Shown: positions 1,870-61,200 of the stretch, in pieces
How the letters are laid out: every line of letters starts with the position of its first letter
Numbering within the stretch: the stretch's first letter is position 1
NCBI GenBank assembly: GCA_965178125.1
Contig: OZ237765.1
Location: 1-64,000 of the forward strand
From: Bilabrum cf. latius
Lineage: Eukaryota
Reading direction: 5' to 3'
Length of the DNA stretch: 64,000 nt
Position numbers and translations under genes: made by a program
The notes under the pieces: model-generated
Told to the model about the DNA's origin: nothing
Seen by the model: the letters and a program-made list of their open reading frames with translations, nothing else
The model's database searches: none

Positions 1870-3075
1870 ATGAGGGCAGTGTCCGTTCTTAGCATAATTG
1901 CTATGGGATCTTGTTATTATGCGTTTGGATGCCAAAATATCCTAGATTGCTCGCTGAATGGCGATTGTTCGGCTGGAGTATGCAAGTGTGATCCCGCGTG
2001 GACTGGAAAAGCATGCGCCCAGCTTGACGTTGCCCCTGCAAGTACCACCCCTGCTCTCTATAGAGCTACCAATGCTACATGGGGCCTGTCAGTTGTTCAG
2101 GACCCCAACGAGTCTGGTGTGTTCCATGGTTACGTCGCAGCATTCGCAGGGGAGTGTGGCCTGGATTCGTGGATACATACAAGCCTGATCTGGCATGCCG
2201 TGGCTCTGTCACCCACAGGACCATTTATGAACGAAACAGTGGTAGAGGCTGCTGGGGACACATCTCCTGTGTTCCGGCACAATCCGACAGCCGTGTGGCA
2301 CAACCCAAGCAGCAAGATCGTTCTTACACACATTGGGTGTGGGAACCAATCCACCCCTCCACAGTACAGCAACTGTACTGGAGGACAGACTCCGTCTGAC
2401 TTGGCTGGTTCTGTCAGACCGCCTCGTCCTGGCACGGCCAACCGTTGCAACGGCTTCAACACGAACGCGATGGCGGCCAGCTCGCCGGGTGGACCATGGT
2501 CTGAGGACGTGAATCTGGTAGCAGCAGGGGGCACCCCCTGGCCCAACTCAATGGACAACCCGGCACCCCTTGTGCTCGCCAACGGGACAGTCTTGTCCAT
2601 GTTCAGGTCGTATAACCATACGCACGGCCCCACGCACAGCGTGATCGGCATCGCTCGCGGCCAGTCCAGCGAGTGGGATGGGCCCTACTCGAAGCCCTCC
2701 CACCCGATACTAGGGTCTGGGCCAGAGGGCTCTGCGCCCTACGCGCAGCTGGAGGACCCGTTTTTCTGGCAGGATGCGCGCGGATACAAGGCCCTGTTCC
2801 ACAGCATGGGAGGATGCACGGACGTGGGGTGCTTCGCGTTCAGCGAGGACTCCTACCACTGGCACATGACCGGGTCTGAAGTGGACGGTGTGGGGCACGC
2901 TTACTCGCGAGAGGTCCTCCTGTCCAACGGGAGCAGCATCACGTACAAGCGGAGAGAAAGGCCGCACCTCGTGTTCGTCAGGGGCGTCGAGCATCCCGTG
3001 GCGCTCACCAACGGGGTGCTGCCTGAGGATGACGGTGACCACTCGTACTCCATCGCAGTCCCGTTGCGCGCATAA
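1870..3075 (+). CDS. Secreted protein: EGF-like domain plus putative five-bladed beta-propeller glycoside hydrolase (GH43-like clan)
   Basis: Signal-like MRAVSVLSIIAMG, EGF-like CSLNGDCSAGVCKCDPAWTGKAC, and motifs HNPT, DNPAP, EDPFFW, RRERPHLVF. Single exon ending TAA, no internal TAG. Confidence 0.7.
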   Translation: MRAVSVLSIIAMGSCYYAFGCQNILDCSLNGDCSAGVCKCDPAWTGKACAQLDVAPASTTPALYRATNATWGLSVVQDPNESGVFHGYVAAFAGECGLDSWIHTSLIWHAVALSPTGPFMNETVVEAAGDTSPVFRHNPTAVWHNPSSKIVLTHIGCGNQSTPPQYSNCTGGQTPSDLAGSVRPPRPGTANRCNGFNTNAMAASSPGGPWSEDVNLVAAGGTPWPNSMDNPAPLVLANGTVLSMFRSYNHTHGPTHSVIGIARGQSSEWDGPYSKPSHPILGSGPEGSAPYAQLEDPFFWQDARGYKALFHSMGGCTDVGCFAFSEDSYHWHMTGSEVDGVGHAYSREVLLSNGSSITYKRRERPHLVFVRGVEHPVALTNGVLPEDDGDHSYSIAVPLRA

Positions 3076-3304
3076 TGACTGGGATCATGGGGAAGTCGAC
3101 TACTATGCGCCACCGCTGATCGGTTGGTTGCTTGTCAGGCTCTTGCTGCGGCCAAGCAGCACTGCAACTCCGAGTTGCGCTGCATTTGAGTTCGATTGTC
3201 CGTGCTACCTGTACAATTCGAAAACGAAATCTCTATAACTGAAATTTGTCATGGCATAAGTGTGGACTAGATCTGATCGCAGGATATCGGAGCAAATCAG
3301 AGGT

Positions 3305-5197
3305 ATGCCCCTGCGGCAACTGCCTGTTCGTGGCCAAGTCGAACTCGGGAGGCACCGTCACGGAGGAGTAGATGCAGCTCATAAGTTTGCGCTGAAAACG
3401 GACGGTAGTGGTGTGTACGTGTCATGCATGTGAGCGGTCTTGATTTGCTGCATTGAAACAGCATTAGTATTTGCTTGGGGCACAGCCAGTTGGTGTATTC
3501 TCCCGAGCTTAAGTCACCGCTATTGTTGCAGCTCTACTCAACCAAACTCGCCAATGCTAGTGGCTGGCGGATCCGATGGCCGAATGCGACTCTGCCGGCT
3601 GGATACAATGCGGCAGACCTTTGACTGTGCCGCACACGCTGGTGGTGTGCAGGATTTGCACTGGTTGTCGGCTGACTCTGGTGCAGGGGTATCTGCTGGG
3701 ACTTCAGTTTGGCTTTCAGGAGGTATGGATGGCCGCATGCGACTATGGGATGCCCGCACCTCCCGCTGCGTGCAGGACTGGCAGTGCTCTGGGCCTGTAG
3801 GCGCAGTTGCAAGCGGTGCTGGTGTGCTCGGCCCTGAGGGTTCAGCCGAGCCGCAGTGGCTCTTGGCTGCAGCCAGCGGCCCTTCTATCGGCGTGTTCGA
3901 CGCACGGAAAGCCAGCCTAAGCAGCAGCGCGCACAAAGCAGGTGCTGGCAGCGGTGCTGGAGGGGGTGTGTCTGCATGTGCTCGCCCCCTGCTGGTACTA
4001 GAGGGGGTGCACAATGAGGGGGCTGGCGGCGGGGTAGGTACTGGGGCAGGTGCATCGTGGGGTTCTGCACCGAGTGGAGCGTCAGGGATGACTGAGAAGA
4101 TGTCGATGGGGGGAGGTGCGGCCATGGCAGGGGGCGATGAAGAGGAAGACGAGGATGGTGAGGGAGACATCAACTGCCTCAGGTTCCACCGGACACCACC
4201 CACCCGTGGGGAGGCAGCTCGGGCAGAAGCGGCAGCAGCTCGTGCCACCGGTGTGCCCCCTCCCACCGCTGGGGAACAAGCCTCCAAGGAGCCCACTGTG
4301 CTGCTGCTCTCGGGGGCCGACGACCACACCGTAGCGGCCACTGACCTGAGGGCCGCGGCACGGGCCGAGGCAGAGGGAGCTGGAGGTGCTTCAGCGGGGA
4401 GTGGATGGGGTGCCAGTGATGAGGCATTGCTCCGATCGATGAGGTCGGATGCAGCCGTCACTGGCCTCGGCCTCTTTGGGCCCAGGGGCGCGTACTGCTG
4501 GGCGGTGACGGCTCAGGCCTCTCTCTCCCTGTGGTCGCTGGCCAGCGGTGCCCCCGTGGCGCACTTCGGAGATCTGCAGGCGCGCGGCAAGGCGGCAGGA
4601 GTGCCCCTGGACTCGCTCGTGTCTGTGCACTACGACGAGCGCACGCAGGCCCTTACCGCGCTGGCTTCCTCCCACAGGGGCATCGGCACCTTGCTTCGGG
4701 TGCAGCCCAAGGCGGCCTCTCCGTGGGCAGTGCTGCCCTCTGCACATGGAGACTCTGCCGCCGATGAAGCGGCTGCGGCTGGGGCAGAGGCCTTTAAGGA
4801 CGGAGGCAGGGGTGCAGGTGGGGCGGGGGCCATGGGTGGGTTGGAGCTTGAGGCGGCGGTGTCGGGGTTGGGGATGGGCATGGGTCACCGTGCGGCCATC
4901 AGGTGCGTGTCGTGGATGCATGGGGCGGGGTCCTCTGCCAGCGGGGGGGCCGGGCCCAGTGCCCCTCCCAGCCTGGTGACAGGGGGCGAGGACGGGTCCA
5001 TCGTGCTCTGGGGGCCCGGTGGGAGGGTGGGGAGGGTAGGAGCTTCAGGTGCACCGTCGGAGGCATCGGCTGGTAGGTCGGGTGGTCCGTCAGGCGGGGC
5101 GAGAAGGGCTGGTCCGGTGAGGCGAGGTGGCGGCGGGGCGGCGGCCAGGGCAGCGTCATCTGCAGCATCTGGGGCCATCACGAAGAAACGTTCTTAA
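3305..5197 (+). CDS. WD40-repeat protein, WDR89-like
   Basis: WD repeats (GGSDGRMRL, SGGMDGRMRLWD, GHRAAIRCVSW..VTGGEDGSIVLW). Inferred intron 3430-3531 (GTGAGC..TTGCAG) joins YVSC-I-STQ in frame. Ends TAA. Start codon and WDR89 orthology are inferred. Confidence 0.7.
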
Positions 5198-5367: not shown

Positions 5368-5717
5368 ATGGCTGCCAAGACTGTCATCAGAAGCGGTCCG
5401 CATTGGAGGATGGCTGGAATGAACTACTTGGAAGCCATCAACGTTGCCACGAACGCCTTGAGGCAGGTAATCAAGGAGCCGCGCAAGAGCTAGGTACTTG
5501 GCAAGAGCGCCTTCCAGTACAGGGAGTACCAGTACGTCGAGGGTGTTGAGCAGAAGCCTCGTGAGTTTATGTTTCATACTGAAGCAGTTCGATGAGTTTT
5601 TGTGCGAATATGTTCGTGACCGTCACGATCCAGACGGTTTGCCTCATGCCACCTCGTGCCAGCTTCTCGCGTTTCGCAGGCATGGTTACGGACAAGGGCA
5701 TCCAAGAATTGCAGTGA
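5368..5717 (+). CDS. ATP5F1E: Mitochondrial ATP synthase F1 subunit epsilon (one in-frame TAG)
   Basis: MAAKTVIRSGPHWRMAGMNYLEAINVATNALRQVIKEPRKS[TAG 5491]VLGKSAFQYREYQYVEGVEQKP matches the epsilon pattern WRxAGxxY..R..LKEP. Intron 5561-5679 (GTGAGT..CGCAG). Ends TGA at 5715-5717. Confidence 0.8.
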
Positions 5718-5834: not shown

Positions 5835-7706
5835 TCACGACATTTTCTCTTGCCCACTGCTTTTACCCTCTGTGCCACCGCCTGGGCCAACGCTACCATC
5901 GCCCGCCCCGGGAGGCGTTTCCTCCGTTTCTTCGCCAGCATCCATGGCCACAGAGGGCGTCATCGTGTCTCCAGGACCAGGGCCTGGGCCATGTATCCTA
6001 CTTGGGGCAGTGTGCCCACTCATGGTGCTACCTGCGTCGCTAATGGCCCCGGTGCCATCCCCCCGAGATCCGGCAACCGCGCTCCCTGACCTGCTCCGTC
6101 GTGGCCCCGCATCTGCACCCGCCGCTGGCGATGTGCGGATGGACGCGCCCATCGGGCCAATGCAAAACCGGAACAGATCACTCAGAGTAACCATTCCGCA
6201 CGGCTTGCCCTGCTGGTCCACGCCCACCACGCAGTAGCACCGAGTGGCGGTGAAGGTGTCCACCACGCGCCTGAGGCTGTCGGTGGGCCGGCACACGCGG
6301 AGGGCAGTCACGCCCCCGGATGCCGCCACTTGCGCTCGCCTGGTCCGCTTCACGGGGGCGTCCAGCACCGTGAGCCCTGGATCCGTGGCCAGGAAGAGCA
6401 CATCATCCCTGGACCAGAGATCCACCAGCACACGGGAGCTGGGGTCCACCAGGGGGACTGCGGCCAGCCGCCGCTGGGCCACCACCCGGAGCACGTCCAC
6501 CAGGGGCGTCTCCGTCGTGCAATGCACCACTCTATCTGCGCCCCATACGCCCACTCCCGAGTGCCCCACGGGTGTGTCCAGCCCCGCCAGCGCAGTGGTG
6601 GACTTGAACCTCTCCGCGAGGTGCTCCAGCACGGTCCCGTAGGTCAGCAGCCCGAGGGCCATGGTGCGGGAGGGGGGCGGGTACAGCATGCCCTCCCGCG
6701 CACTCATCACACCATGCCGGTGCGCCTCTGCTCCCTCGTGCTCGGCGGCGCCCTCCTGCGCCTCCCCGCTGGATCCACCAGGCCTCGCCCCTCCGGCGCG
6801 CCCCCCCCCGCGCCCCCGGCGGATCTCCCGCTGCCTCGCCAGTCGGCGGGCCAGCCCCACCGTCTCATGCTGCCGCCCCGAGGACGCGCCCAGTCCGCCC
6901 GCACGCGTGTCTGCTAGTGCACTAGATGGCCCGGCCCCGCCCGAGTCCCCAGCTGCCGATGCCGCAGCAGCTGCGAGCTCTCGCCCTGCTGCAGCTGCTA
7001 CCGCCTACACCTCGGCATCTTCGGCGTCTTCCTCCTCCTCTGCCCCAGCCGCTGCATCTGATGGAACAACTGCGACTCTATGGATACTGTTCGAAGCAAG
7101 CAGTCTAACTGCATCAAGCAGCGTCTGCTCAGGCGGTATCTGCACAAGGCCGTGTGGATAGTCCCACACCGGGAGCGGAGACCCATCCGCGGCAGCCTAT
7201 CGCATTCGAACCTCCTCGGCTTTCATTCGCTGGAATTGTTTCCAAGATGCTAACGTGTGGCGATTAAGAGCCTATGCCGCAGTGCTTGGACCACCCGCAG
7301 TGCCCCTCTTGTGGTACTCCAGCAAGATCTACGAAAAATCTGTCACGGTGACCATGCCCGCGAACTCGCCCCTAGCGCTATCCCACAATGGCGCTGCAGT
7401 AACTTCATTCTCAACCAGCGCGTAAAATGCCAGACGTAGGGGCACAGTCACGTCAAAAACAACCACTTTACTGCTTGCTGGCAATGCATCATAGCATGTC
7501 GTGGATGCCAAAAACGACGCGAAAGCTCTTCGAGCTGGAATTAGGGACCTGTCAAGGCTCCTAGTCGATGCATTTGTGGACGACTCTACGCTCGACATGC
7601 TTTGGGACGACACTGAAGCCGCAGATTGGTCGCCTCCTTGGCTTGGCAGCGTAGGCGGTACCACTGAAGGCCGCATGGCTCCATCTGTGGTACCATCTCC
7701 CTACAT
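5835..7706 (-). CDS. CBS-domain protein, AMPK/SNF1 gamma subunit-like (five in-frame TAG)
   Basis: TCYDALPASSKVVVFD..AFYALVENEVTAAPLWDS..FAGMVTVTDF is typical of AMPK gamma. One continuous frame runs to TGA at 5835 if TAG at 7701, 7329, 7272, 7197 and 7005 are sense. Alternative start at 7676. Confidence 0.85.
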
Positions 7707-17169: not shown

Positions 17170-18703
17170 TCACACTCCGACCCTTCGCCGCTTGACCTGG
17201 GCCTCGCGTGCCGCATCTGCGCGCCCTCGCCCCTTGCGTCGGGCCCCCGTGCCCCTCCCCGCTGCTGCCCTGCGCTCAAGCAGCGCCTGCAGTGGCACGT
17301 CCTCGTCCAGACTGGGGGAAATAGCGGCTCGGTGATCACGGGCAGCACGACCATGTGCACTCTCGACCCCACCCCTACCCCCAGCCCAGGGCAGCCTTGA
17401 CAGCAGCGCGTCTGCGAGCACCGCGTCGACATGGCTGCCACGAACCGGGCTTGCCTGCACTCCACCGAGGCACAGCCGAGCCTCTTTGCCTGGCCCTTTG
17501 GACTCTGCATCCTCGTCATCCTCAGATGAGCTGGTGCTGACGCTGCTGTCTGAGCTAGACACGCGGCTTTGTTTCGCCTGCTGCCGCTGCTTTGCTCGCC
17601 CTCGGCCCCGCCGATTTCTCAGCTGCACGCGCAGCTCCGACAGGGAGCCCACGGCGCTGGAATAACCGCAAGCCGAGCTCGTGTCTGATTCTGACTCAGA
17701 TTCCGGTTCTGAGCCACTCTCGTGACCGGGGGCTGCTTTCATCTGCGCGAGCACAGCCCGGGACACATGCACCGCACTGCAACGGCTCCACGTCGCTGCA
17801 CCAGCTCCCTGCGCCTCCGCACCATCGCGCGGCCGCTTGCCCCTCCGTGCCGGACCTCCACCGAGCCAGCCGTGCCGCCGCTGCATTGACCCGACGCCCA
17901 ACGCCCGTAGGGAACAGCCAGCGCGCAGCTTGCTGGCCAGCGAGCGCTATGTTCGGGCGTCCGTTCGCGTCGCTGCCCTGGCCTCGGAGCTGTGCAGGGC
18001 AGCGGTGGCAGCCGTGTAGTTGCTGCTGCTTGGACCGGCTGCGGCCTGGCTGCCCCTGCGCCTGTCCACTACTCTATGCAGCGGGAGCTCAGCCTCACAG
18101 GTGGGGGCACTTTGCTCTGCGCTGTGTGCCGCAGTTGTTCCCACCGCTCTGGATGACTGGCCCCCGCTCGATGCCCGCCTCCCCTGCTTGCCTCGCGCCA
18201 TGCCGTCCACCTAACTTCGGTGGAACGACACGCCGGAAGCAGCCGAGCTTAAGTCGACCCGCACCAGCTGCGGGTCGCATGCAGGCGCAGGCAGGGCCGG
18301 CATCGTGCCCTCATGATACCGGAATCCGCCCCTCTGCAGCACCCCCACCACCTGCTTGTACTTGGCAAAGGCCCTCCGGAGGCGCTGCTGCTCCGCGCCC
18401 CTTGCCACGATAGCCACGCACCTGCCCACGCCCTTGCGCCCCGTGCGCCCCATTCGCTGGATGGCCCGGATGGGAGACCCCGAAGCATCGTACATGACGA
18501 TGAGCTCCACCTCCCCGATGTCCAGACCCTCCTCCCCGATGGACGTGGCCACCAGGGTGTTGAACCGACCGGTCTTGAAGTCGCGGACCACCTGTGCCTG
18601 CTCCTTCTGCGACTGGCCTTTGGTGCTGGTGCTGGCACTGCTGCTCACTGGCTGCAGGGCGTGACTGCCTGCAGCACCCGCCGCAGAGGAAGAGGCAGAT
18701 GAG

Positions 18704-18740
<37 letters not shown>

Positions 18741-20292
18741 GTCTCGCACTCCCGGGACCAGTCTGCGTGCCCGACTACCCGATGAACGGCGCGGCTCTAA
18801 CGAGTGCCTGCCCCCCTTTGCCCGCACCGGCACTCGCTCCACTGGCACTACCCCCACCAGCACTCCCCCCACCGGCAGCCCCTGGCGCCTGCACGGCCAT
18901 GTCTGGCATCCCCTGCATCTGCCGGAGCACCTCGTGCACGGATGCTCTCGTGCTCGTGAATATGATGCACCGGCTGCTGCGGCCCTGCCTGGCTGCCTCC
19001 TAGAAGTGCCTCCGCACCACAGTCTGCAGCACAGTCAGCTTGGGGTGCAGCACGTGCCGCCCGGAAGCGTGGAGCGCCTCGGTGGCCTGCCACAGCGCCT
19101 ACCACGCATGGCTCCGAACCATCTCACGCCGACTCAGGCTGCCCCCCGAGTCTCTCCTGAAGCTCACCAGCGCGTCTCGGAAGGACCCTGTCCCGTGCAC
19201 TTCCAGCTCGCGGCGGGCGGGCAGCAGCGCCATTAGCAGCCCGAAGTCGCCCCGCACCTGCCCTGGGACCTCCACGGTCGGGGGCCGCGGGCCAGTCTGC
19301 TTCATGCCGGCGGCGGCTGCCAGTTTCTGTCCCGCCTGGGCTGCGTACGAGCTGAGCACCTGGAAGGAGAGCCTGCCCGGATCCTTGAATGGGATGAGCT
19401 TGAGGCCGTGCAGGCGCTGGATGCAAGGGCGCATGGCTACCGTGAGGAGGGACTGCAGGCGGCTGATCGCGGGGGGCAGGTCGATGACCAGCTGCTCCAC
19501 CTGTTTGTCGTGCACGTGCGCCCGCACGTCGGCGTCCTGCTCTGTCCTGGCCTCGACGTGCTGCACCCTCAGCTTGCCCAGCACCTCCTGCACCTTGGCG
19601 CGGTCGTTCCCAGGGGTGGCGCTCAGGGCGACCACGCGGAAGTGGCTCTTGGCCCGCCGTTGCCATGGCTGCAAGCTCAAGTGGGGATCTGCCTGCGGTG
19701 GCCTCGGGGGCGCCGCCGCTGCCCCTCCTGTGGCCCCTGCTGTGGCAACTCCGAGTTTCGCCGCTTGCTACGCCTCCAGTCGCTCGATTACCGTCGTGTA
19801 CGCGTACTGCCCGGTAGCCCGGTGCGCTTCATCAACCACCACAAGAACGATTCGTTGCACCGGCACGATTCCGCGGCCAAGATCATTCGAGAAACTCTAA
19901 GGAGTGCAAAAAATAACTTGCTTGTCTTGCCACGCCTTTCTGCGTTTTTCGACGCTTAATGTGCTTCCAGCAAGTAGGGCCGTGTCCTTAACGTCCATTG
20001 ACACAATTCGGTAGCAAGCTTGCACCTGTTGCGTGACTAATGGGCGAGTCGGGGCCATAAACACAACAGCACCAGTTGGAAACCACCGCAAAAAGTTATG
20101 CATGACGCAGCTAGCAATAAACGTCTTGCCAAGACCGGTTGGAAGGGCCACCAGAGTGTTCCTCAGCAAGCATGCCCGCGCGATTACCCTCTGATACTCG
20201 CGTTCTGCGTATCCAGGGCTGACCGGGAGCTCCCAGCTTCCGCAAGTTGTCATAGCGAGCGGTGGGAACCGCAATGCATTCGGTCCAGACAT
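17170..20292 (-). CDS. FANCM: FANCM/Mph1/Hef-family DEAH helicase (seven in-frame TAG)
   Basis: [33 protein letters not shown][TAG], [24 protein letters not shown][TAG][25 protein letters not shown] in one frame of 1041 codons ending TGA. TAG at 19897, 19768, 19099, 19000, 18775, 18211, 17947. Confidence 0.93.
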
Positions 20293-23641: not shown

Positions 23642-23834
23642 GAGCCGAGAGTTGCATACTTGGGTGCTAGGCGTGGCATAGGCTATTCAAACAGTGCGTG
23701 GCGTGCTCTGGTCAAGAGCGATGAACCTCGTAGAACCTTCGGTACTCACACGAGTGCTCACATCAGCAGCGTTGAATCTTGGAGTCGAGGGATCAATGGG
23801 GCGGTAAATCAAGGAAGCAGTACAGTAATTTAGT

Positions 23835-43801: not shown

Positions 43802-46800
43802 ATGGACCGTGCGGGTATCACCCATGACCAACCGGACAGAGCCGCGCTACTCGCAGCAGCAGCTGCAGCTGAATCAGTCTCATTGGATTCACAAGGAGCC
43901 TTAGAAGCTACTGCGGGATAGCTGGCAGTGCCAGCTGCCAGCGGGGCAGGGGCCACTGGCGCCGTCCCGCCGCCGAAGCTCCCCCTAACGGCGGCAGAAG
44001 CGATTAAAAACTTCGGTCAGCTGACAGAGAAATTGAAAGAAGTTGGACACTCATTGGGAATGAGGCCGCCTGTAGTGAGTTTCTCGATCGCTTCGTCCTC
44101 CGACTACACCAAGTGCCTCTGCCTGCTCGAGCCGTGGCTTGGTGTTGGACTCAAGAACTACAAGCCGCAGTGGGGATCAACGGGTAACAGTCGGACTAAC
44201 GAACTACAAAAAACTACCAAAGACGTCCTGGAGCTCATGGGCCACGCTGCCGCGCGAGGCTGGACGGAGGAGCTCGAGGAGATGATGAAGCAGTTGCAGT
44301 TGCCCACACTGTTGGCAATCGATGAACTTGATGTAAGCCAGGCTTCACCAATCTCACCCTTGCAATTTTGACCCATCCCACAGGATACCAGAAGTATTCC
44401 ATACCCCCATACCCCCATACCTTCCTACTCCCCTACCCGCCTACCCCCGCGCCAACACCACTTCCTCCCGCAGGTCCTAAAGCAGGCCTTGAAGATGGGC
44501 ATCGAGGACCTGTCCTGGTTCCTGCGAAAGAACGAAGACAAGCACGAGGTCGCACCCACAGGTGCTGGTGGCTGGGGTGAGGGTGGCTTTGGCTCATCCT
44601 CGTCGAAGGCACGTATCCAGTTCGGCACCGCTGCTCTCCGGTGTGTATAGGCGGGCCGATTAGACCACGCCCAGGTCTTTATAGATGAAATCGTTGTGGG
44701 GACAACGTGCGATTTGGACATGATGGATGCCTGTATCGCCGCTGCTGCTATTGGAGATGTAGCGTTCCTGCGTGAGCACGTCCCGGATACGATACAGAAC
44801 GAGGGCAGTGTGTTCTCTACCAGTCAATTGCATTTCATGTTGCTCCACGCCGTCGAAAACGGACAGAAGGCTGTGTGGGACCAGTTGCTGTCCATGAGAG
44901 AGATTTTGCATGGGGTAATGCTCTATCTGGTCTGCCGGGAGATCGCTCCTGCCTCGATCGAGACTTTGCTCGGCTGGCTCGAGACTCGACGACAAGTGAG
45001 TCTGTGGAGACGGCATACTTTCCTATCGAGACCCGGCCTTGCCCAGTCATGCTACTCCGCACAAAGACCCAAGGATCCGATCAACCTGACGTAGATATGC
45101 TGTACTTCCGTTCACTTCCCCCTCTCCTGCTACACCACAGCTTGAAGCGCTTTGCCTTCTCGCTTCACGTACCGGGCCGGTGGCAGTACTAGCAGCCAAG
45201 TGGATGCTTGCTAACTCCAAGTTCGGCGACGACGTAAGAGCCGCTGGTAGGGCAGTATTCTCGACGTATTGACCATGTTTGCTGCGCAGGAACCCCATCT
45301 CCAGCTCATTGCACCGAACTCGACTCTTGGACACCCTCCGCATCAATTTGCAGAATACTTGGATGTACTGCCCCCTCCGTCATGCCGCCAGTACTGGCAG
45401 CGAGAGCCTGTTTGACCTGCTGGCAGACGCGGGTGCCCCCATGCAGCTGTCCAGGGCGGACGTGAAGGAGGCGTGGATGATTCAGCATGACGCCAGCAAG
45501 GAACCAGCACGCTAGAGTGCGTCGCAGGATGAGACAGAAGGTCTATTTACGTCGAAAACCCCCCTGTCCGCTCGACCGACCCTGGCCCAGCTTGCCGCCA
45601 GAGGTGGTAGCGTGCACATACTACAGCGAGTCAGAGCGTAGCTTGGTGAAGGCGCCTTTCACCCGCCCATTGAGCTGGTGGAGTAGCATGGGTCACTTTT
45701 GTGGATGGCAGTCCGTGAACTACGACTGGAAGCTTGTTCCTTCCTGACCAAAGAGCTGAGCGTGGATTCATACGCACCGCCTGGAGGGTCAGCCGGTAGC
45801 AATGGGGGGGTGATCAAGGCCGCGACCATCGCCTGCATTGAGCGGCTGGAGTTACGAAGGTGGGGGTCTACGTACCAAAGAGACCGTGATGAAGTCAAGA
45901 AGAGCTTCAAAGGCGTGCTGGACGCACTGCTATCAGCAGGCGCCACTATCGATGATATCGATGCTGTGAGGGCGCAGCTGCTGCTACCCACCCCCCATGT
46001 TGGTAAGACGGCTAATCTAGGTACACCTTGTTAACCCCGCCCCACTTCCCCTTTCTGCATCACAGAAAGGCCGAACCCCACTGATGCATGCTGTCGCCGG
46101 AGGGGCCATCCCAGCCGTACGAGAACTCCTAGCAGTCGGAGCTGATCCGCGGCTCACGGACGCCGATGGCCGCAACGTGATTTAGCATGCCACGCCGGAC
46201 CACCGCTTGTTTGAGCTGTTGCTGGATGCTGGGGCGCCCGTCACGATGCCCGATGGCAAGCCATACCCCATTGAGATGTTCTAGGTCGGAGATAAACAGA
46301 CGGTTACTAGGCGCTCGCTGTCGGCCCTCGCCGTGCTGGTGGCCCGAGAGGGGCCCGCCGCCCTGCTGCGTGCTGAGGACCGCTTTGGGGACTATTGCCA
46401 CCTGGAACGTGTGTTCATGGGAGGAACTGAAGTCCAATATGGCGGGTTTGGGCAAAATGAGCCCGCACTCGACTACGAGGAGATCATGGGTCTCCTGCTG
46501 GCCGCCATTCGGGCCATTCCCCAGGCGGCGTGGCAGGAGCGGTAGGTGAGAGCCGTTGCAACCAGCTAAACGTGCCTTCTGCATGGGTAGTTGTAAATAG
46601 TTCCATCTCGATGTGCCAATCACAGCTGGGTTTTTACCATAACCGTTGGCCATCCAACACCGCAGCAGTCGCACGACATACTCAGGCGCGTTCTAAGTCT
46701 ATGCACCGCCTGGTCGGCCCACGCGGTGGGCGTGCTCGCGGGCCGGCTGGACGTGGATCTGAATGGAATCGAGTAGCAGGCCTTTATAGTAAGTCCGCTT

Positions 46801-48608
46801 GATCTGGATGCGTTCGTTGCAGCCTGATCATAGCACCATGTGCAAGGAGGCTGGGCGATTTGAGCGTGCGACTTGCCAGGCACCAGCTTCCCACTGCACA
46901 CATTCGTGCCGTCTCACTCGTTGATGGATACCGCATCCATCCGGTGTCACGACCTGGACGCAGTATCTATTCAGATAGCGCTGCGCAACCGCGGCCAGCT
47001 GCACATGGATTGAATGCCGCTACTGATTTCAACACATCCCCGCAGCCCTGTGACACTGGCAAGCAGGCCGTCCTCCTGTCACTGGGGGTACCACCCACCG
47101 CTTTGTGCACGAAGGAAACGAACGGATTTTTCGGCATCTTGAAGCCCCTCAAGGTCTTAGGTACCCGGTACTGCATGCTAAGGTCAATTGCAGGCACCTT
47201 TTCTCGTGTCCCCAACTTCCGTCCGCTGGCTAGAGACGACCTGCTGCTGTTCAGGCATGCGGCCGATGCGACCAGGGGTGTGCCAATCGCGATTCGGGCT
47301 GCCCAGGAAGGACGGCCCCTCGAGCTAGCGAAGCGCTTGAAGGTGGTGCTCGCCACAGGTCTTCTAGTGCGGTGCACGCCAGTAGATTTGAAGGTGCTTG
47401 GGTCGGATAAGTTGCAAGCACTGGCCGACGCTGCTCCTGGCGAGGGAGTCGAGGTTATGGGATGCACGCCGCTAGTGGCCGCTGTTGCCCAGGGGCATAT
47501 TGAGTGTGTTCAGGTCATCCTGGAGGGAACACGGGAGGCGGCGGACACGCAAGCGGCGCGAGTACAGGCAGACTAGGGACCCAGGTGGGGTGACGGCAAA
47601 GGCAAGAAGGATGGGAGCTTGAAGGCGGAAGAGGTCAAGCAGCTGCTGTCCAAGGCCATCCTCTCTGGAGCGCTGAGGCAGCAACTCGCGGTCGAAGTCC
47701 GTGGGGGAAAGGGGCTGACTGATGGAATCGCGATTCGAGTGCAAATAGACCCAGCTGGCCTTGCTTCGGCCCTGGAGAGGCACGACTAGCCTAGCGATGC
47801 AGCTGCCCTGGTCGCTGGATGCATCGAGGGCCTTCTGCAGGAGGCTTCAGAGAGGCTGCATACTGCTGATGGCGCTGTCAAGGCACGTGCCAGGGCTGTA
47901 TTGGGGGTGGTTGCAACCGCCGATATGGAGGCGGTGAAAGCTGCCGGCGCTCGGGCGGATGCAGAGTTAGAGCGCATTGCCGCTGAAAGAGAAGGCTTGA
48001 AGAAGCAGCTGCGAGCCCTCGAGGATCGATAGGAATAGATTTAGTAGGCGAAACGGGTCGAAGCCGTGCTACCTCACCTCATGAAAGCGGCGACCACCCG
48101 GGCTGAGAAGGCCCTCGAGGAAGTGGTGGGCCCCGAGAGGGCATGGCTGCCGCTGGGTGTGGGCGATGAGTTTAGTCGCATTGAGGGCCTGCATGGGGAC
48201 GAACCCTTGAAGCAAGAGCTGCCTGTATTTGTCCCCAAGGAGGGGACGTCCGGTGCAGACGGGAACGGAGCTGGGGGCCGAGAGGCTTAGGGAACAGTAG
48301 ACGGTGAGATGGCTGAAGCAAAGGGGTAGTTGGCCGTGTCACTTCGAGACCGCCTTAGAGAGGCACTGGGTGGGGAGGGGTTGGGGGCGTGGTGGCACGA
48401 GGTCTAGCGCGCCGTGCAGGAGGCCCAGGGCGGGGGATAGGTATTTTGGGGGGGTGCAGGAAGAACTAATAGGGGAAATGCACGAAGGAGAGTATGGGGA
48501 AATGCTTTCCTTGGAGGCCAGGCCGGGGGTCAGACGGCGACTGGGGGCGCTTCCGCTGGCCAGCTTAACCCTTTTGAAGTTCCTGCACGGCTGCTAGACA
48601 TTCTTTGA
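43802..48608 (+). CDS. Large multi-exon ankyrin-repeat and coiled-coil protein (more than 12 in-frame TAG)
   Basis: Ankyrin motifs CPLRHAASTG, GRTPLMHAVAGG..GADP..DADGRN, GCTPLVAAVAQGHIECVQVIL. GT-AG introns near 44334, 44995, 45234, 45965 and 46546. Final exon 47046-48608 is open except for TAG and ends TGA. Some exon boundaries uncertain. Confidence 0.7.
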
Positions 48609-49032: not shown

Positions 49033-52000
49033 ATGTTGGGCTGGCTGGCATCAATCTTCTACATTGTGCATGCAGACACGGCCGCGGCAGAAGTTTGTAA
49101 CGCTGGCTGCACTACCATTGATGGAGTTATAATTGGATCCGGCGGCAACCCGGTTTCTGCTTCGTCCGTCGATGAATGCTGCACAAAGTGCAACGAGCAG
49201 TTCGGATGTTTTGCTTTTACGTATTTGTCAGGGTAAGATTCGGCCTAGCACGCACCCCAGTTGGCTTGCTGCTTCACATGAAGACCGTTGGGCGAACTCC
49301 TGCAACACACTCACACTTGCAGTGGTGGCGGGTGCTATTTAAAAGACAACACGGATACGCACATTCCTACACCAGGTCGTGTGTCTGGCAACCGGAGTGC
49401 ACCAATGCCGTCACCGCCGAAGCCACCGACACCTGTGCCCATCCCGGCCTCCTGCTTGCCCCCATACGACCATTTCGACTATTGCAACATGTCGCTGCCT
49501 GTGGAGACCCGCTCCCAGTCTCTCATCTCGCTTTTGCATGATAACGAGAAGCCCCCTCTGCTCACGGCCCGCGAGAGCCCCAAGGGCAACGTGAGCCGCA
49601 TCGGGTTGGTGGAATACGATTACGGTCTTAACGCGGTTCACGGTGTGGAGTCCAGGTGCGGGAGCAAGAAGAGCTGGGACGGAAATACGATTCCGAACTG
49701 TCCAACATCCTTTCCGTCTCCCAACATGCTGGGCTGCGCCTTCAACGAGACCCTGTGGGAGGCCATGACCGATGTGATCGGGCATGAGATGAGGTCCCTC
49801 TGGCTGCAGGGCGTCGGGGAGAACCACGGCAACGGGCTGCCACACATCGGTGAGAGAGAGGGAGAAAGGGAGAAAGAAGACTAGCAGGTGATACATCTAG
49901 CTGAATCCGATGGCTGTCAACATTCCTTGAGGTGTCCTCACCAGGCATCCCATCGCGCACTGCCACTGGCGCCATGTCCCTTCCACCGCTCTTGACCCCC
50001 ACCCTCGCAGGCCTCGACACGTGGAGCCCCAACATCAACGTGTGCAGGGACCCGAGGTGGGGCCGCTGCCAGGAGGTGCCCAGCGAGTCTACCTTCGTCA
50101 ACGGCCGGTACGGCGTCAGGTATACCCGCGGGCTGCAGAACGGGGACGATGACCGGTACTACCGCGGAGTGACGTGCATCAAGCACTGGGCGGCGTACTC
50201 GCTGGAGAACTACCACGAGCACTCGAGGCTGAACTTCACGGCCAACGTGTCCGACTACATGCTGGCCGCCGTGTACCTGCCTGCCTTCAAGGAGGCCGTG
50301 ACTAAGGGCAACGCGCAGTCCGTCATGTGCTCGTATAACGCCATCGCGCTGCAGAAAGGCAACAACTCGACCGAGTTCGGGCCAAGTGTGCCCACGTGCG
50401 CCTCCCCCTTTCTGGCAAACATCCTGAGGGAGCAGTGGGGATTTACCGGTGAGATTGCGAGGGTCTTTGCATTGCTGGCTTACCATGCCAGGAAATATTC
50501 GTTTGCAGTTTCCACGTTGCGAATCATTGGATACTGCGCGCCCAGATTCTTCTCTTCTTGCTGTTTACCCCGATTTACAGGTTACGTAACCTCTGACTCA
50601 GGCGCCGTCGATTTCATCTATTCGACCCACCACTACGTGGACAGTCTCGAGAAGGCCGCCTGCGTGGCCATCAAAGACGGCGTCACGGACATAAACAGTG
50701 GAGATGTGTACCGTGATCACCTGCTCTAGGCAGTGGCCGAAGGGCTCTGCAGCATGGACGACGTGAACCGTGCCCTGAACAACTCGCTGCGGCTGCGCTT
50801 CGAGATGGGCCTGTTCGACTCGCACGAGGGGCAGCCCTACTGGCACGTGAGCGAGCAGGACGTGAACACGACCTACTCGAGGGAGCTGAGCCTGTTCGCC
50901 GCCCAGCAGAGCACCGTGCTCCTGCGGAACGAGGGCAGCATCCTCCCGATCAAGAAGGGGGCCAAGATCGCGGCTGTGGGCCCCCACGCTGATGCCAACC
51001 AGGAGCTCCTCGGCAACTACCTGGGCCAGATCTGCCCGTTTGAGGGGTACAACTGCGTGCCCCAGCCGTACGTGGAGCTGCAGAAGGCCAACCCCGGTGG
51101 CTCCGTCACCTTCGAGCACGGTTGCGACGTGGACTCGCAGGACACGAGCGGGTTTGCAGCCGCGGTGCAGGCCGCCAAGGAGGCGGACGTGGCGGTGATC
51201 TTCGCCGGGCTGAGCCAGGAGGTGGAGAGGGAGGGATACGACCGCGTGAACATCTCGCTGCCCGGCGTGCAGCCCGAGTTCATCCGTGCCGTGCTGGCCA
51301 CGGGCACTCCAACTGTGCTGGTGCTGATCAACGGCGGCTCGGTGGCCATCGACGGGCTTGCCACGGAGGTGCCTGCCATCGTGGAGGCCTTCTACCCGGG
51401 CTTCTTTGGCGCCCCTGCCCTGGCCAGCGTGCTGATGGGGGACTACAATCCCGGCGGCAAGATGCCCGTGACCATGTACGAGTCGAGCATCGTGGACCAA
51501 GCCAACTTCCTTGATATGGACATCGCCCACCCGCCCGGTCGCACTTACCGTTTCTACACGGGTAAGCCCTCCTTCGCTTTTGCGCACGGCCTGTCGTACA
51601 CGACCTTCACGGTGTCATGGGACAGCGAGCAGGTGGGCCAGGAAGAGACCCAGCTGTGGACCGGTGCGGGGCCCATGTCTGCGGGAGGGAGCGGGCAGGT
51701 GTCCAAGACCTACACGGCCAGGGTGACCAACACGGGGGACAGAGAGGGCGACGAGGTGGTGTTCCTCTTCGTGAAGCCGCAGGAGGACGTGGACGCCGTG
51801 CACGGGCCTCACCCCGACGGTGGTGACCCGGGGGACCTGCCCCTCATCAAGCAGCTGGCGGGCTTCCAGAGGGTGCACCTCAAGGCCGGCGAGTCCACCA
51901 CGGTGACCTTCAACGTGGACTCCGATACGCTGGCCATGCCTCGGCGGGGGACTGGGCGCACGGTGGCGTGCCCCGGCACCTACGTGCTGGAGGCCACCAA

Positions 52001-52109
52001 CGGCGTGGACCAGGTGGCGAGCGCGGTGGCCCGTCTGGTGGGCGACGAGCGCGTGATCGACGCCTCTGTGGAGAACGCGCTGCTGGCCACCGGCGGACGG
52101 CCCCAGTGA
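49033..52109 (+). CDS. Secreted GH3 beta-xylosidase/arabinofuranosidase-like enzyme with N-terminal PAN/apple domain (one in-frame TAG)
   Basis: CCTKC..GCFAFTY..CYLK (PAN), Pro linker, PTSFP, WSPNINVCRDPRWGRCQEVPSE, KHWAAY, VMCSYN, GYVTSDSGA, EREGYDR, YPG, GRTYRFY. Introns 49233-49322, 49850-50010, 50449-50580. HLL[TAG 50727]AVAEG. Ends TGA. Confidence 0.92.
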
Positions 52110-52405
52110 TCACTGATCCGGTCTGATTGGGAGGGAGGGGTCCATTGGCAAGTGGTGTCGAACGCCCAAGAAATGGTCCCAATGCAGTCTGTCGAGTGTA
52201 GCCGGTTGCTGCGGTAGGCGTCCCCCGACAGTTCTTTTTACGTCGTACTTCATGCGTAGTTTCGTTTGCATGCTCGTTTGATAACATGCTCTCCTGGTGT
52301 CATAGTGAAGATGAAGAATTATAATGGCGAAGCGAGCCCGGCCCCAAGTGAACTCCGACGGACAACCGCAGGCAGCCCCTGGTGATCAGGATTGGGCGCG
52401 AAAAA

Positions 52406-53959
52406 ATGTCGATATCAAATGATTCAGGACTACATCAAGCTGAAGAGCGGTTCATGGCAGCCAAGACTCGGTTGCTGTCTCTTTTTGGTAGCAGCGAAGG
52501 CAGCTCGGCTGCGGACTCTGGCAAGGAAGCTGAACCTAGCCCGTATGCTGAGCGTAAACACGAAGCTACGGATCAAACTTCAGCACTGGATTATCACAAT
52601 GATTCGTCTCGACCATCAACTGCGATGCGTGCCAATTCTGCAATGCATCTGGGAGCGCTGCCTGTACAGCACGGTCCAGCCCGAGACAGCGACATCTTAC
52701 AATCAGCAGAGGTTTCGCTCATTTTGCACGAGCCTAAGCACCATGAAAGTATATTCAGTAGCCGCCATGCCAAGCGAGTCACTGGCCACTTGGGTGAAAC
52801 GTGCTGGGTGGAATACAAGACTTAGTACGAACAGCAGATGGATCATCTACCAGATACCTACAAAGGCACGTATCCAGCGGATCATAGCAAGCAGCTCTCA
52901 AGGGACACGACTGAAGATCGAGAATCGGGCGCCGTATTGGCAGCAAGCCAGGCCCGAATGTCGGCTTCCCGCGAGTGCTCGCTTCGGCCGTTCGACGGCA
53001 CCAGAATCCCAGCGATCCCACTGGCAGCGGGCGGCGCCGAGGCCGAAGTCGCACGCGCGCAGTTATAGTCTCAGCCGCATGTGGCACACAAAAGTCGTTC
53101 CAGAGGCAGAAGGCACCCGAGCTTCAGCAAATAGAAGGCCCCCACCGCAGGCCCAGACCGGCGATCGATCGCAACTACCAGGTCCAAGCCCGCCTTCGAC
53201 CTGCGGACCGGCCCCGCCCACGAGAAGGCACTCAGAGAAGAAATGCAGCGCGCAGAGCAGCAGCTGAGGCGCAGGCACGCCCTCGAGGTCAGGAGGAGGA
53301 GGCGCCTGCTGCACCAAATGGGGAGGGGCAGCTTGGGAGCAGCGGACAAGGGTGGCTCATACATGTAGGGCATGGCTGGCACAAGGCCAGCGAGATAGGA
53401 GGCACAGAAGTCGCCAGGGCCTCGGTTGGAAGCAGGGCAGCGACGTACTAGCGGGGCAGGCGGCGGGCGGACCACTAGGGCTCGGACTCGGAGTCGAAGC
53501 ATGAGCAGGCAGGTAGATCTAGATCGAGGCAGCTAGATCTAGGGGGAGGCACGGATGACTCCGGTTGGAAGTCATCCCGTGGACGGATACAGCCAGGGGG
53601 GGTTGTCGCACCGCCGGTCCAGCGCGGCTAGCAGTGGCAATGAAACGCGGCACGGACCGTCACGAGCGGGGCATGCGGGCCAGTCACGAGCGGGGCGTGC
53701 GGGCCAGTCACGAGCGGGGCGTGCGGGCCAGTCACGAGCGGGGCATGCGGGCCAGTCGAAGGGGCCAAGACAGGCAAAAAAGAGGTAGGATCGTCTAGCG
53801 AGAGCGATCGATCGCACAGGGCTCAATTTACATGCAGTTGCAAGCTCGCTTGCAGAACCCGCCCGATCCGATGAGTTCGCTGTAGAGCTCCAGCCGAGCC
53901 AGGGCCGACCGAGCTCAACGCGAGGGTCTTTGCGGACAGGACTGTGGGTACCCGGGTAA
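52406..53959 (+). CDS. Hypothetical basic low-complexity protein (about eight in-frame TAG)
   Basis: Track ORFs 52382-52825, 52838-53068 and 53555-53788 share one frame broken only by TAG. Ends TAA at 53957. Contains a 24-bp tandem repeat x4 (SRAG[H/R]AGQ) at ~53659-53756. Confidence 0.55.
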
Positions 53960-58088: not shown

Positions 58089-58245
58089 TCGAATAGTGCG
58101 TTCCGGAATCTTCATCTTCAGCTGTTTGGGTTGCTTGACCACACGATTTGCGACGTGATGTAGCAATGCAGACAGAAAGTTATTTCATCAAATAGTAGTA
58201 CGAGCTTCCAATGAACCACTGGCGATCCATGATCGCAAGTGGCCC

Positions 58246-61200
58246 TCACATGCCGCCTTCTTCTTCTCCTGGCTTGAGCACGTCCACCAGCACCACACCA
58301 AGCCCAGTCCCCGCCGCGATCAGACCAGAGATGTACAGGCTCAGACCAGACGACAGTAGCGCGACGGTAGCAGGCAATCCCATCACGCGGACTGGATTCA
58401 GCTGCATCTCGGTGTCCAGCCCGCGGGTCACCAGGTAGAGCGCGTGCCGCACTCGCTCCAGCCTCGTCCTCGTCTCAGGACCCATGGGCACGGGAGGCGC
58501 CACGATGAGCTCCTGCACGGTGGCTTCAATCCGCGTGAGCCTCCTCCTTTGAAAGGCACTGGCACGGTTCACCTGGATGCCGTAGTACATTAGGTATCCG
58601 AGCGCCGTCTAGAAGATGAGTGCGAGCACCACCGTCTGCGTGAAGAGCACGATGTACTCGTCTCGACTGAAGAGCGCGCTCCCCGCTGACGCCGCCACGA
58701 GCCCTCCGATGAACATGAGGGCAGCAAAGAGCGTCCCCGCCGCGAACAGCCCCGTGTACATGTTGATCCTAAGCATGTAGGGCCTGCCCACGTCCATTAC
58801 AGTATTGCGGACGTGCCACCACAGCAATAGGTTCTGCGGGTACAGAACGGGCAGGTGCAGCCGATGCAGTGCTCTGTGCATCATTGCCTGCGTGTCCTCG
58901 TGCCTGTGGTACAACGCCCGGTCCACGATGCGTCTCCTCATCGCTGCACCGTTCCACTGGGCCATGGACATTCGCTGGCATATCCCAGACTCCACGTATT
59001 CCTCCAGCAGACCCCCGTCCTACACCTTGGGCTGCTCCCAGCCGACCGCCCCGTGGCTGTGCCCCGCCATCTGAGCGATAGAGGTCACTTGCGGCAAGAG
59101 GGGCCCCGCCACCACCTGTCCCTACCCCTGTCCCTGTCCCTGGAATCGAACCCCCCTGCTGTGGCCCGCCCTCTGGCCCGACGCAGAGGGCAGTCGAAGC
59201 AGTCCGCGACCCCCGGCAGCGACTGAGGAAGACTGGCCGCTTGTTCCCTCACCGCTGCTCCTCACCCCACCCTCCGAGTCATCCGGGTCGGGCCCGGACG
59301 AAGACGCCGCGCTGCTGCCTCGGGTGCGCCGCCTAGCACCCCCTTGTCCCTCCGTGCCCCCTGTGCCCCTGCTCTCCGAGCTTGAGGCGCGGGACCTGCT
59401 GTCCCCATACGGGGATAAACCCAGCCGCAAACCGCTGGAGGCAGCCCGAGGCACTCCCCCTGCAGGCCTCCTTGCCGTGCTCCTGCCCCGCTGTGCATCC
59501 AGCGCACCCTGCCGGCCCAGCGGCACCCCCCCGCCCTCGCTTTGTCCCCTGCGGACCGGGCCTGGAATGCCACGACCCTCCTAGTCGCTGGGCACCCACA
59601 CCTCCCCTGCCGATCCCCGGTGCCGCGCCCCGCTACCCCGCTGCCGCAGCCCCCCCTCCGTGCCCGCTTCCTCCGAGACCGCGTGCGCCACCGGTCCATG
59701 GCGTGCGCCACCGTGGGGCACTCTTGGGTCCACCAGAGCCACCTGAGTGAGAGAGGCGCGGCCTCTGGCCCCCGTTGCCGTGCTGCTGGTGGGCAGCAAC
59801 ATGTCCTGTTCACCCGCGCTGCTGCCCCCTCCCGCCGACATCACTGATGCGTGCTGGCTGAGCACCTGTCGGATCTGCATGCTCTCCCGCCGCAGTCTAG
59901 AGGCGGTGTTGCGGCTGTGCACCCGCTTGCGGTCCATACGACGCTTGCTGCGAGTGCGCTGCCCCTTGCCCCCTGGGTTGGGAGTGCCCCCGCCCCCATC
60001 CCCGTGCCCCGCCTCAAGCTCCGCCGCCTCCCTGACCCCCTCCATCCCCTGTATGGCCGCCACCAGAGTGGCGCGGTGGTAGAAATTGGACCACACGACA
60101 GAGTGCCGAGCTGCCTGGGCCAGCAGGAAGGTCGTGCTGGGGGCACTGTCGGTCACGCCAGGCACGTCCACCACCTGCTTCAGCGCGTCGTTCTCCTCCT
60201 CTATCCTGCGTTGAGACCGCAAGGACTTGGAGTCCTCACCGGTGGGCTAGCCTGCAGCGGCACCAGTCCCCGCCCCTGCGGTGGTGCTGCCCTCCGCTCC
60301 GGCCGCGAGCAGCCCAGCGGGAGCGGCACTGCCATCCACTGCAGCCCCCCCTCCAGGTGCGCCCTCCTGCTTAGTCTAGCCCTGTTCCTCGTCTACCGGC
60401 GGCATCCCACTCTTTGCCCTCCTCTTCCTGTGCAGCTCGTGCAGCACACCATCCATAGCCTGCTTCTGCTGCGCTGCTATTCGCCCTTCCTAGGCCTGCA
60501 GCTGCATGGACCTTACCGTGTCTTCCATCATGTTGCATGTCCCCGCCTGCGCCCACAACTGATTGGCCGCACCCAGCCCCTGCACCACCTCCAGCGGTGT
60601 CTCCCTCGCCGCCACGTCCCAGTCGTGGCTGGCCAAGGCCCGGGCCGAGGAGGGGTCCAGCAGCTGGTGCAACATGCGGGCTGCTTGGTAGCGCCTGTGG
60701 TAGTCCAGCGAGGCCACCACCACAAACGAGACCTCCAGCATGGCGTTGATGGTGGTGGCGATGACATAGCAGCTCAGCAGCAGGATCCCTTCAGCCGTGA
60801 TGGGCAGAGTGCCCTGCACTGCCCGGATGACCACAGAGGTGCTGAACACCAGCAGCGAAAGCACGAACGAGAGCCGCAGCAATTTGCCCGCCACCATCGA
60901 CGCCCCCGACTTGATGTGCGAGGCCCATAGCACGTACCACAGGAGCATCTTCAGGGGCAGCGTGGGCAGCCCGTCCTCGTTGGTGCCCATTGCTAACCCG
61001 CCCAGCCGGGACAGCTCCACCCCGCTCTGACTGCTAGAGTGCACGCTTACACTGACGCTCGATGCCTCATCAGCTACACTTCCCGTCCACGCCTGGCTGT
61101 ACCCATGCGCAGACTGACCCATTGACAGCTCAGATCCCAGCCCAGCCCTCCGACGAGCACTGAGCTGCTGCTCCCGCGCCCCGCTGCTGCCACTGGAGCC

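Follow-up and report, generated by a model that had tools for sequence, protein, structure and literature searches.

In most eukaryotic reassignments of stop codons, UAA and UAG change meaning together (PMC5304391; PMC11687900, in excerpt). Iotanema spirale (Fornicata) was the first organism for which a code was established in which UAG alone encodes glutamine while UAA and UGA are kept as stops; NCBI code 15, erroneously ascribed to Blepharisma, has the same UAG=Gln mapping (PMC5304391). For Iotanema, a tRNA with the anticodon CUA and an altered eRF1 release factor were deduced, its eRF1 carrying T32G in the GTS motif, and in a rhizarian that reads UAG as leucine no evident alteration is seen in the conserved eRF1 motifs (PMC5304391). 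Here we analyze positions 1 to 64,000 of contig OZ237765.1 (GenBank assembly GCA_965178125.1, Bilabrum cf. latius), a stretch of DNA referred to below as the window. An earlier reading of its letters (the sequence-only reading) had stated, in agreement with the sources just cited, that UAA and UAG usually change together, and had claimed that the two are uncoupled in this DNA. The claim of uncoupling holds within the window, as UAG is a sense codon there and UAA and UGA are terminators.

The window resembles Iotanema in its code table, in the occurrence of UAG at conserved glutamine positions, in the absence of in-frame UAA and UGA, and in the CUA anticodon and eRF1 change that would be deduced from them. 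Iotanema is an anaerobic gut flagellate represented by a transcriptome, and its main stop codon is UAA (104 UAA versus 15 UGA in 126 genes) (PMC5304391). In contrast, TGA is dominant in the window (15 TGA versus 5 TAA, plus one more of each), the GC content is 60.7% over the 64,000 bases, a mitochondrial ATP synthase subunit is encoded, and the closest named relative is a stramenopile. Among ciliates, Protocruzia tuzeti and two phyllopharyngean lineages also read UAG as glutamine and have not reassigned UAA (PMC11687900, in excerpt). The codes of NCBI table 6, which are used by many ciliates, hexamitin diplomonads, ulvophyte green algae, and oxymonads, and to which Amoeboaphelidium is assigned as cited, share glutamine and the TGA stop with the window, but TAA is not a sense codon here. 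UAG and UAA are likewise uncoupled in the rhizarian exLh (UAG=Leu), in Scotinosphaera (UAG=Ser), and in Oligohymenophorea sp. PL0344 (UAA=Lys and UAG=Glu), whereas the amino acid here is glutamine (PMC11687900 and PMC8271138, both in excerpt). Finally, crAss-like phages that use code 15 read TAG as glutamine and keep the other stops, as here (PMC9523058, in excerpt); theirs is a code of the bacterial translation system, whereas the window belongs to a nuclear chromosome of a eukaryote and has a telomere and genes with spliceosomal introns.

RESULTS

UAG is a sense codon in the window

Reading through TAG, with only TAA and TGA taken as stops, gave a set of 17 long open reading frames (ORFs) with a total of 13,046 codons, which the standard code breaks into pieces. 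TAG occurs in frame 85 times in these ORFs, and TAA and TGA do not occur in frame at all. In the two other frames of the same ORFs, TAG was counted 100 and 89 times, TAA 33 and 40 times, and TGA 191 and 220 times (frames 1 and 2, respectively). We conclude that TAG is not avoided in frame, as its in-frame number resembles its off-frame density. The zero counts for TAA and TGA are circular, since the ORFs were delimited by these two triplets, and tests that are independent of stop codons were therefore added.

One such test scored codon usage in the two 40-codon flanks of every stop-type triplet, across all six frames; stops themselves were scored as zero. Positions up to 1800 and from 8600 to 15300 were omitted, which left 398 TAA, 859 TAG, and 1317 TGA triplets. 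Both flanks reached at least 5 bits at 37 of the 859 TAG triplets, at 1 of the 398 TAA triplets, and at 2 of the 1317 TGA triplets. The single TAA (50582, minus strand) lies antisense to a GH3 beta-xylosidase-like gene, and one of the TGA triplets (54441, plus strand) lies antisense to DPM3. The other TGA (28192, minus strand) is a true gene end, the downstream side of which is antisense across the next, convergent gene. A second test compared all collected homologues with the window by tblastn, which returned 371 high-scoring segment pairs (HSPs), and all 10 distinct stop sites found within the alignments were TAG.

The surroundings of TAG also differ from those of gene ends. Across the 20 terminators claimed by the sequence-only reading, mean GC was 0.635 before and 0.503 after, and the coding score became negative, whereas across the 85 in-frame TAG codons there was no change (GC of 0.619 and then 0.632; score of 5.66 and then 5.48). 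The base following TAG was distributed as it is after CAG (chi-square p = 0.37), and the base following 22 terminators was T in 10 cases, G in 6, A in 5, and C in 1. Moreover, Pfam and PDB alignments continued through TAG in four genes, namely, those for a serine carboxypeptidase of family S10, the GH3 protein, an AMPK-gamma/SNF4-like protein, and the epsilon subunit of mitochondrial ATP synthase (ATP-epsilon) (Table 1). We conclude that UAG is a sense codon in the window.

Conserved protein columns point to glutamine

One gene with an informative alignment encodes a FANCM/Mph1-like helicase. Among 8000 scored candidates, 2998 were homologues of the helicase at an E value of 1e-3 or lower, the best being about 35% identical, and the columns containing TAG were read in an alignment with the best 120 of the 2998. 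Two TAG codons fell in columns in which glutamine was invariant, and a third fell in a variable column in which glutamine was the commonest residue (Table 1). The other helicase TAG codons fell in a column of leucine or methionine (99/120 homologues), in a column of valine or isoleucine, and in an insertion. As we weigh these alignments, a single Leu/Met column cannot outweigh two invariant glutamine columns. Neither a UAG=Leu nor a UAG=Ser code was encountered, as both invariant TAG columns were glutamine.

A second line of evidence came from the AMPK-gamma gene, which matched AMPK gamma-1 in the PDB (E = 1.7e-32). At TAG 7329, glutamine was found in Cafeteria proteins and in two others (Table 1), aspartate in protein P0233, and asparagine in human gamma-1. 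Protein P0227 is 98% identical to the product of the window gene and has the same C terminus, and its glutamine at TAG 7005 shows that TAG and CAR have been exchanged between strains. P0227 begins shortly after another TAG of the window, with a non-ATG start, and P0238, a 111-residue database fragment that is also 98% identical, terminates exactly before TAG 7329. Both fragments look as a prokaryote-style gene caller set to the standard code would produce them, and their boundaries at TAG codons show that standard-code callers have cut this gene at matching places in a sister strain. We note that an ATG immediately followed by TAG is present in frame at 7701-7706 (minus strand), 8 codons upstream of the likely AMPK-gamma start; it either belongs to the 5' leader or is a start that places glutamine second in the protein.

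The TAG sites of the S10 and GH3 genes were dropped as evidence for the amino acid, as their columns were variable or gapped. The TAG of the ATP-epsilon gene was also in a variable column and shows continuity of the alignment only. Judged by the helicase and AMPK-gamma columns, we conclude that UAG is glutamine in the window.

UAA and UGA end genes

The sequence-only reading had given terminal codons at 20 coordinates, and all 20 carry the stated codon (5 TAA and 15 TGA), on one strand each. Its list missed two terminator-like ends, TAA 46567 (plus strand) and TGA 31447 (minus strand), and did not include ORF 23829-26252, the 3' end of which is uncertain, as are those that it placed at 48606 and 53957. 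Its broader statement, that every gene ends in TAA or TGA, holds by construction wherever a gene has no homologues. Homologue-anchored ends were TGA for the AMPK-gamma, S10, GH3, and ATP-epsilon genes and tandem TAA-TGA for the gene at 1870-3072, and none was TAG. This tabulation of the codon following conserved C termini (4 TGA, 1 TAA-TGA, 0 TAG) covers the window, out of the genome-wide scope that had been proposed for it.

If TAA were synonymous with TAG, it would be expected in the long ORFs in proportion to the use of other A-ending codons, the share of which was 17.5% for CAR, 22.6% for GAR, and 24.6% for AAR. For 85 TAG codons, about 18 TAA codons were expected from the CAA share (0.175) and 28 from the AAA share, and none was seen. 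In the flank test, the probability of finding 0 in 37 at a share of 0.175 was 8e-4. Sense TAA was thus absent from the ORFs, the HSPs, and the flank test of the window alike, and the earlier observation that no internal TAA occurs and no gene requires TAA readthrough is confirmed for the window.

Sequence downstream of TAA did not resemble coding sequence. The coding score was -7.6 to -12.7 after all five of the listed TAA ends. The stretch after TAA 5195 scored -0.21 per codon (compared to +0.17 for genes) and runs into the ATP-epsilon gene, the stretch after TAA 38107 scored -0.32 per codon and runs over a convergent neighbor, and the stretch after TAA 53957 scored negative and runs into the neighboring gene. 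The C-terminal tail of the WDR89-like protein is of low complexity and homology gives no anchor for TAA 5195. Moreover, the last 40 codons upstream of TAA 53957 scored -2.6, and the true end of ORF 52352-53956 may be earlier. In-frame TGA follows TAA 3073 after 0 codons and TAA 38007 after 6 codons, and these two ends therefore cannot separate TAA from TGA.

Two TGA triplets were considered as sense codons and rejected. One, TGA 31447, lies between ORFs in the same frame, and the coding score collapses downstream of it. The other, TGA 44369, likewise has an ORF of the same frame on each side; it is adjacent to a simple repeat, and its behavior is that of an intron or exon end. We conclude that UAA and UGA are never sense codons and that they end genes within the window.

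The window is a chromosome end with densely packed genes

The first repeat of the window is CCCTAA, in 242 copies (1-1453); 6.3 copies of a 53-base repeat come next, and together these repeats span positions 1-1789. Satellites are present at 8696-10791 and 11260-15244 and are built of a 174-base unit (2.6 and 6.6 copies) and a 173-base unit (23 copies), the latter with a strong C-over-G skew. Because the CCCTAA array is joined by inward repeats and satellites, we conclude that the window lies at the end of a chromosome and that its telomere repeats are of the TTAGGG type. Genes are dense and are located on both strands, with ~100 to 230 bases between adjacent stop codons. ARAGORN found no tRNA genes in the window, Rfam gave no matches there, and eRF1 was not among the 94 window ORFs scanned against Pfam.

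Introns with GTGAG...CAG borders are present in at least the ATP-epsilon and GH3 genes. The ATP-epsilon intron (about 5562-5679, GTGAGT...CAG) lies downstream of an in-frame TAG at 5491-5493, through which the alignment with the best PDB match, Polytomella epsilon (E = 3.8e-9), passes; the predicted protein has 76 residues, compared to 74 in Polytomella. The GH3 intron (about 50449-50573) is in frame, is free of TAA and TGA, and is concealed in a long ORF, and homologue alignments skip its 44 codons. The GH3 protein matched xylosidases in the PDB (E = 3.7e-94). For the S10 gene, the start methionine was located, and the PDB alignment covers both TAG codons and extends to the conserved C-terminal GHMVP motif.

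The use of TAG varied among the 17 long ORFs. The TAG share of glutamine codons decreased with increasing GC at third codon positions (Spearman rho = -0.52, p = 0.03), the extremes being 1 of 28 glutamine codons in the GH3 ORF and 10 of 32 in ORF 46803-48605. Because of this dependence, the frequency of TAG in the window may not represent the genome.

Other features of the window were noted in passing. The gene at 1870-3072 (plus strand) starts about 80 bases past the 53-base repeats and encodes a secreted-looking protein with EGF and GH43-like parts; its best named homologues were fungal (about 30% identity), and metagenome proteins were 58 to 63% identical. Positions 28195-34506 (minus strand) contain ORFs of 1019 and 1084 codons in one frame, divided by the single TGA at 31447, with the next ATG about 100 bases further on; we read them as a tandem gene pair in which the spacer is very short. 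At 40577-46569 (plus strand), exons with ankyrin repeats follow one another in shifting frames and represent at least two multi-exon genes. Within this ankyrin run, the 8-base repeat CCGTCCCA is present 12 times (41674-41770) and is rich in Pro and Thr codons in one frame.

Two genes point to a stramenopile related to bicosoecids

The best named matches of the helicase were from the oomycete Achlya and the brown alga Choristocarpus, followed by numerous fungi, with identities close to 35% throughout. When the AMPK-gamma protein was compared exhaustively with 1.84 billion representatives by phmmer, the closest named organism was Cafeteria roenbergensis (45% identity, E = 3e-68). From these two genes, we infer that the organism is probably a stramenopile related to bicosoecids. 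A green-algal origin, suggested by the Polytomella match of ATP-epsilon, was rejected, as the PDB is without a stramenopile epsilon and AMPK-gamma points to Cafeteria. Iotanema was ruled out by the mitochondrial ATP synthase subunit gene, as Iotanema is anaerobic. An aphelid origin (Amoeboaphelidium) was also considered, and no aphelid name appeared among the homologue matches. Ciliates typically carry other telomere repeats and have AT-rich genomes, and the CCCTAA repeat and 60.7% GC argue against a ciliate, as do the best protein matches, which were stramenopile and fungal. For comparison, the genome of Cafeteria has about 70% GC and 1.7 to 1.9 introns per gene, and the excerpt of its description reports no nuclear code change (PMC6972860).

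Table 1. Genes, TAG sites, and gene ends in the window
Feature	Coordinates	Strand	Observations
FANCM/Mph1-like helicase gene	17173..20292	-	Pfam DEAD, Helicase_C, ResIII; 7 in-frame TAG; ends TGA 17170-17172
Helicase TAG, invariant Gln column	19897..19899	-	Context FCTP-x-SFSNDL; Gln in 120/120 homologues and 133/133 tblastn HSPs
Helicase TAG, invariant Gln column	18775..18777	-	Context PFIG-x-SG; Gln in 120/120 homologues and 3/3 HSPs spanning the site
Helicase TAG, variable column, Gln commonest	19099..19101	-	Gln in 45/120 homologues and 48/133 HSPs
AMPK-gamma/SNF4-like CBS-domain gene	5838..7676	-	Pfam CBS; TAG 7329, 7272, 7197, 7005; ends TGA 5835-5837
AMPK-gamma TAG	7329..7331	-	Gln in three Cafeteria proteins, P0232, and P0236
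AMPK-gamma TAG	7005..7007	-	Gln in P0227 (98%) and P0228 (73%), ...AEVQAVAAAA...; 2/2 HSPs
Tandem TAA TGA, subtelomeric EGF/GH43-like gene 1870-3072	3073..3078	+	C terminus within 0-1 residues in 9/19 homologues
TAA end, WDR89-like WD40 gene 3554-5194 (no TAG)	5195..5197	+	74 codons to next in-frame TGA
TAA end, ELMO-domain gene 38110-40563	38107..38109	-	138 codons to next in-frame TGA
TAA end, ankyrin-repeat gene	46567..46569	+	Score 11.3 upstream, -15.1 downstream; 85 codons to next TGA
TAA end, ORF 52352-53956	53957..53959	+	365 codons and five more TAA before next in-frame TGA
TGA between same-frame ORFs 31450-34506 and 28195-31446	31447..31449	-	Score 11.0 upstream, -17.8 downstream
In-frame TAG with terminator-like drop	25470..25472	+	GC 0.68 to 0.49; score 14.7 to 2.9
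Four TAG in six codons, ankyrin/coiled-coil-like ORF	48030..48047	+	...EDR-x-E-x-I-x-x-AKR...; both flanks coding-like, 12-13 bits
Mitochondrial ATP synthase epsilon gene, two exons	5369..5717	+	Pfam ATP-synt_Eps, E 1.9e-9; ends TGA 5715
Serine carboxypeptidase S10 gene	35788..37311	-	Pfam Peptidase_S10, E 5.5e-70; TAG 37009, 36991; ends TGA 35785-35787
GH3 beta-xylosidase-like gene with introns	49282..52109	+	Pfam GH3 N- and C-terminal, Fn3-like; TAG 50727; ends TGA 52107

DISCUSSION

We consider it likely that the window comes from a GC-rich aerobic protist related to Cafeteria, in which UAG encodes glutamine and UAA and UGA are stops, the mapping of NCBI table 15 that is also used by Iotanema spirale. 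Such a code could be implemented by a tRNA-Gln with the anticodon CUA, which would pair with UAG and not with UAA and which would arise most simply from tRNA-Gln(CUG) by one base change. In addition, eRF1 would have a weakened affinity for UAG and would keep recognition of UAA and UGA. In the 17 long ORFs, UAG accounts for 85 of 680 glutamine codons, and CAG is used 491 times versus 104 times for CAA. At 60% GC, the excess of CAG would make tRNA-Gln(CUG) the likely donor and would exert no push toward a UUA anticodon able to read UAA. The sequence-only reading held that eRF1 must reject UAG, which is too strong, given that the conserved eRF1 motifs of the UAG=Leu rhizarian are not evidently changed and that near-cognate decoding could also be at work.

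Several observations weigh against an unambiguous UAG=Gln code with UAA and UGA as stops. All counts come from a single subtelomeric window of 64 kb that has about 20 genes, and the absence of TAA and TGA from the long ORFs carries the circularity described above. Glutamine was not the commonest residue at 5 of the 10 TAG sites within HSPs, which lie in variable columns or gaps, and the HSP test taken alone is weak for the absence of TAA (P = 0.15). Homology anchors a TAA stop once, at 3073, with TGA directly after it. The base preceding TAG differs from that preceding CAG (G in 36% versus 58%, p = 8e-4). The remaining observations concern 3' ends and are those that would be expected of an ambiguous code of the Condylostoma or Blastocrithidia type, in which UAG is glutamine inside genes and also terminates translation near 3' ends. 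ORF 23829-26252 (plus strand) has no family match and loses its coding signal near 25650 with the frame open to TGA 26253. Its last ~200 codons are noncoding-like, with 5 TAG in 260 codons, and at TAG 25470 within it, GC and score fall in a terminator-like manner (Table 1); the tail may reflect termination at TAG, an intron that was missed, or disorder of the C terminus. In ORFs 46803-48605 and 52352-53956, the sequence beyond the last TAG scored -1.0 and -1.7, respectively, and over six frames, 19 TAG triplets, compared to 29 TGA and 12 TAA, were coding-like upstream and clearly noncoding downstream. Several of the 19 lie at exon-intron borders or just before TAA or TGA, and not all are explained in this way. 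In ulvophytes, genes that lack reassigned codons are noted to have standard stops (PMC8271138, in excerpt). Against an ambiguous code, no homologue-anchored gene end is TAG, and the base after TAG is distributed as after CAG; TAA and TGA, for their part, are never sense in the window. Moreover, the last TAG lies within 60 codons of the end in 5 of 15 ORFs, compared to about 4.9 expected at 1 TAG per 153 codons, and three of the five tails are coding-like (scores of 8.1, 6.3, and 13.5). Finally, the chance of the 260 codons without TAA or TGA after TAG 25470 would be about 0.015 at off-frame densities if the stretch were noncoding. On balance, we think an ambiguous code unlikely.

Specificity for UAG alone would also be obtained in the absence of a CUA tRNA if tRNA-Gln(CUG) read UAG by a first-position U:G mismatch in the presence of a weakened eRF1. 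The analogous case is an altered tRNA-Trp(CCA) with a 4-bp anticodon stem that reads UGA in trypanosomatids and ciliates (PMC13092985, in excerpt). UAG at 85 of 680 glutamine codons and at invariant sites of catalytic motifs calls for efficient decoding, however, and organisms with UAG or UAR as glutamine and known tRNAs carry tRNA-Gln(CUA) (PMC5304391). We regard near-cognate decoding as improbable to much the same degree as an ambiguous code. Considerably less probable is the coupled code of table 6, in which TAA would also be glutamine and would be scarce through high GC. TAA is indeed the rarest stop triplet in every frame outside the telomere and satellites (60 to 85 per frame), and two of the TAA ends have TGA 0 and 6 codons later. 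Yet no internal TAA was found where 18 to 28 were expected for 85 TAG, the flank test gave 0 true TAA versus 37 TAG, and four TAA ends would have to extend for 74 to 365 noncoding-like codons into neighboring genes. We give the least credence to a standard code in which TAG is corrected to CAG by U-to-C mRNA editing or in which the TAG codons mark pseudogenes or assembly errors. DNA alone is compatible with editing, and a 98%-identical relative has glutamine at a window TAG. We know of no nuclear codon-specific U-to-C editing system, and the genes are otherwise intact and conserved. The occurrence of 85 TAG against 0 TAA and 0 TGA in 13,046 codons is unlike decay or sequencing error, and the fragment P0238 of a 98%-identical relative breaks off at TAG 7329 as well, which argues against an assembly error.

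The code itself is already known, and it is the lineage and the GC-rich, TGA-dominated setting that may be new. A full-text literature search, to which subscription papers and supplements were outside scope, found no nuclear code change in stramenopiles or bicosoecids, and in the excerpt of a stramenopile review only mitochondrial reassignments are mentioned, in the reference list (PMC11412368). We tentatively propose, as a possibility that falls a little short of an even balance, that the stop-codon reassignment in the window is the first to be seen in a stramenopile nuclear genome, that of a Cafeteria relative, and that it arose independently of Iotanema and the ciliates, at 60% GC and with TGA as the main stop. 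The reassigned UAG is not the triplet made rare by base composition, which is UAA, and this would fit a tRNA-driven "ambiguous intermediate" better than codon capture.

Few eukaryotes treat UAG and UAA differently, and each of them is a natural test of how one release factor can drop one stop and retain the other, closely similar one. On the reading just proposed, close relatives already go unrecognized among public read and metagenome assemblies, in which their genes are broken off at TAG. The exchange of TAG and CAR at 98% protein identity would likewise provide a natural system for discrimination between UAG and UAA by eRF1, a discrimination of relevance to the engineering of amber suppression in eukaryotic cells (PMC5304391, in excerpt). 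Compared to a slow-growing gut anaerobe, an aerobic and probably free-living protist of high GC content, related to a culturable flagellate, would be more tractable. Finally, standard-code callers break genes at TAG, and the annotation and phylogenomics of the lineage would be wrong until the code is set.

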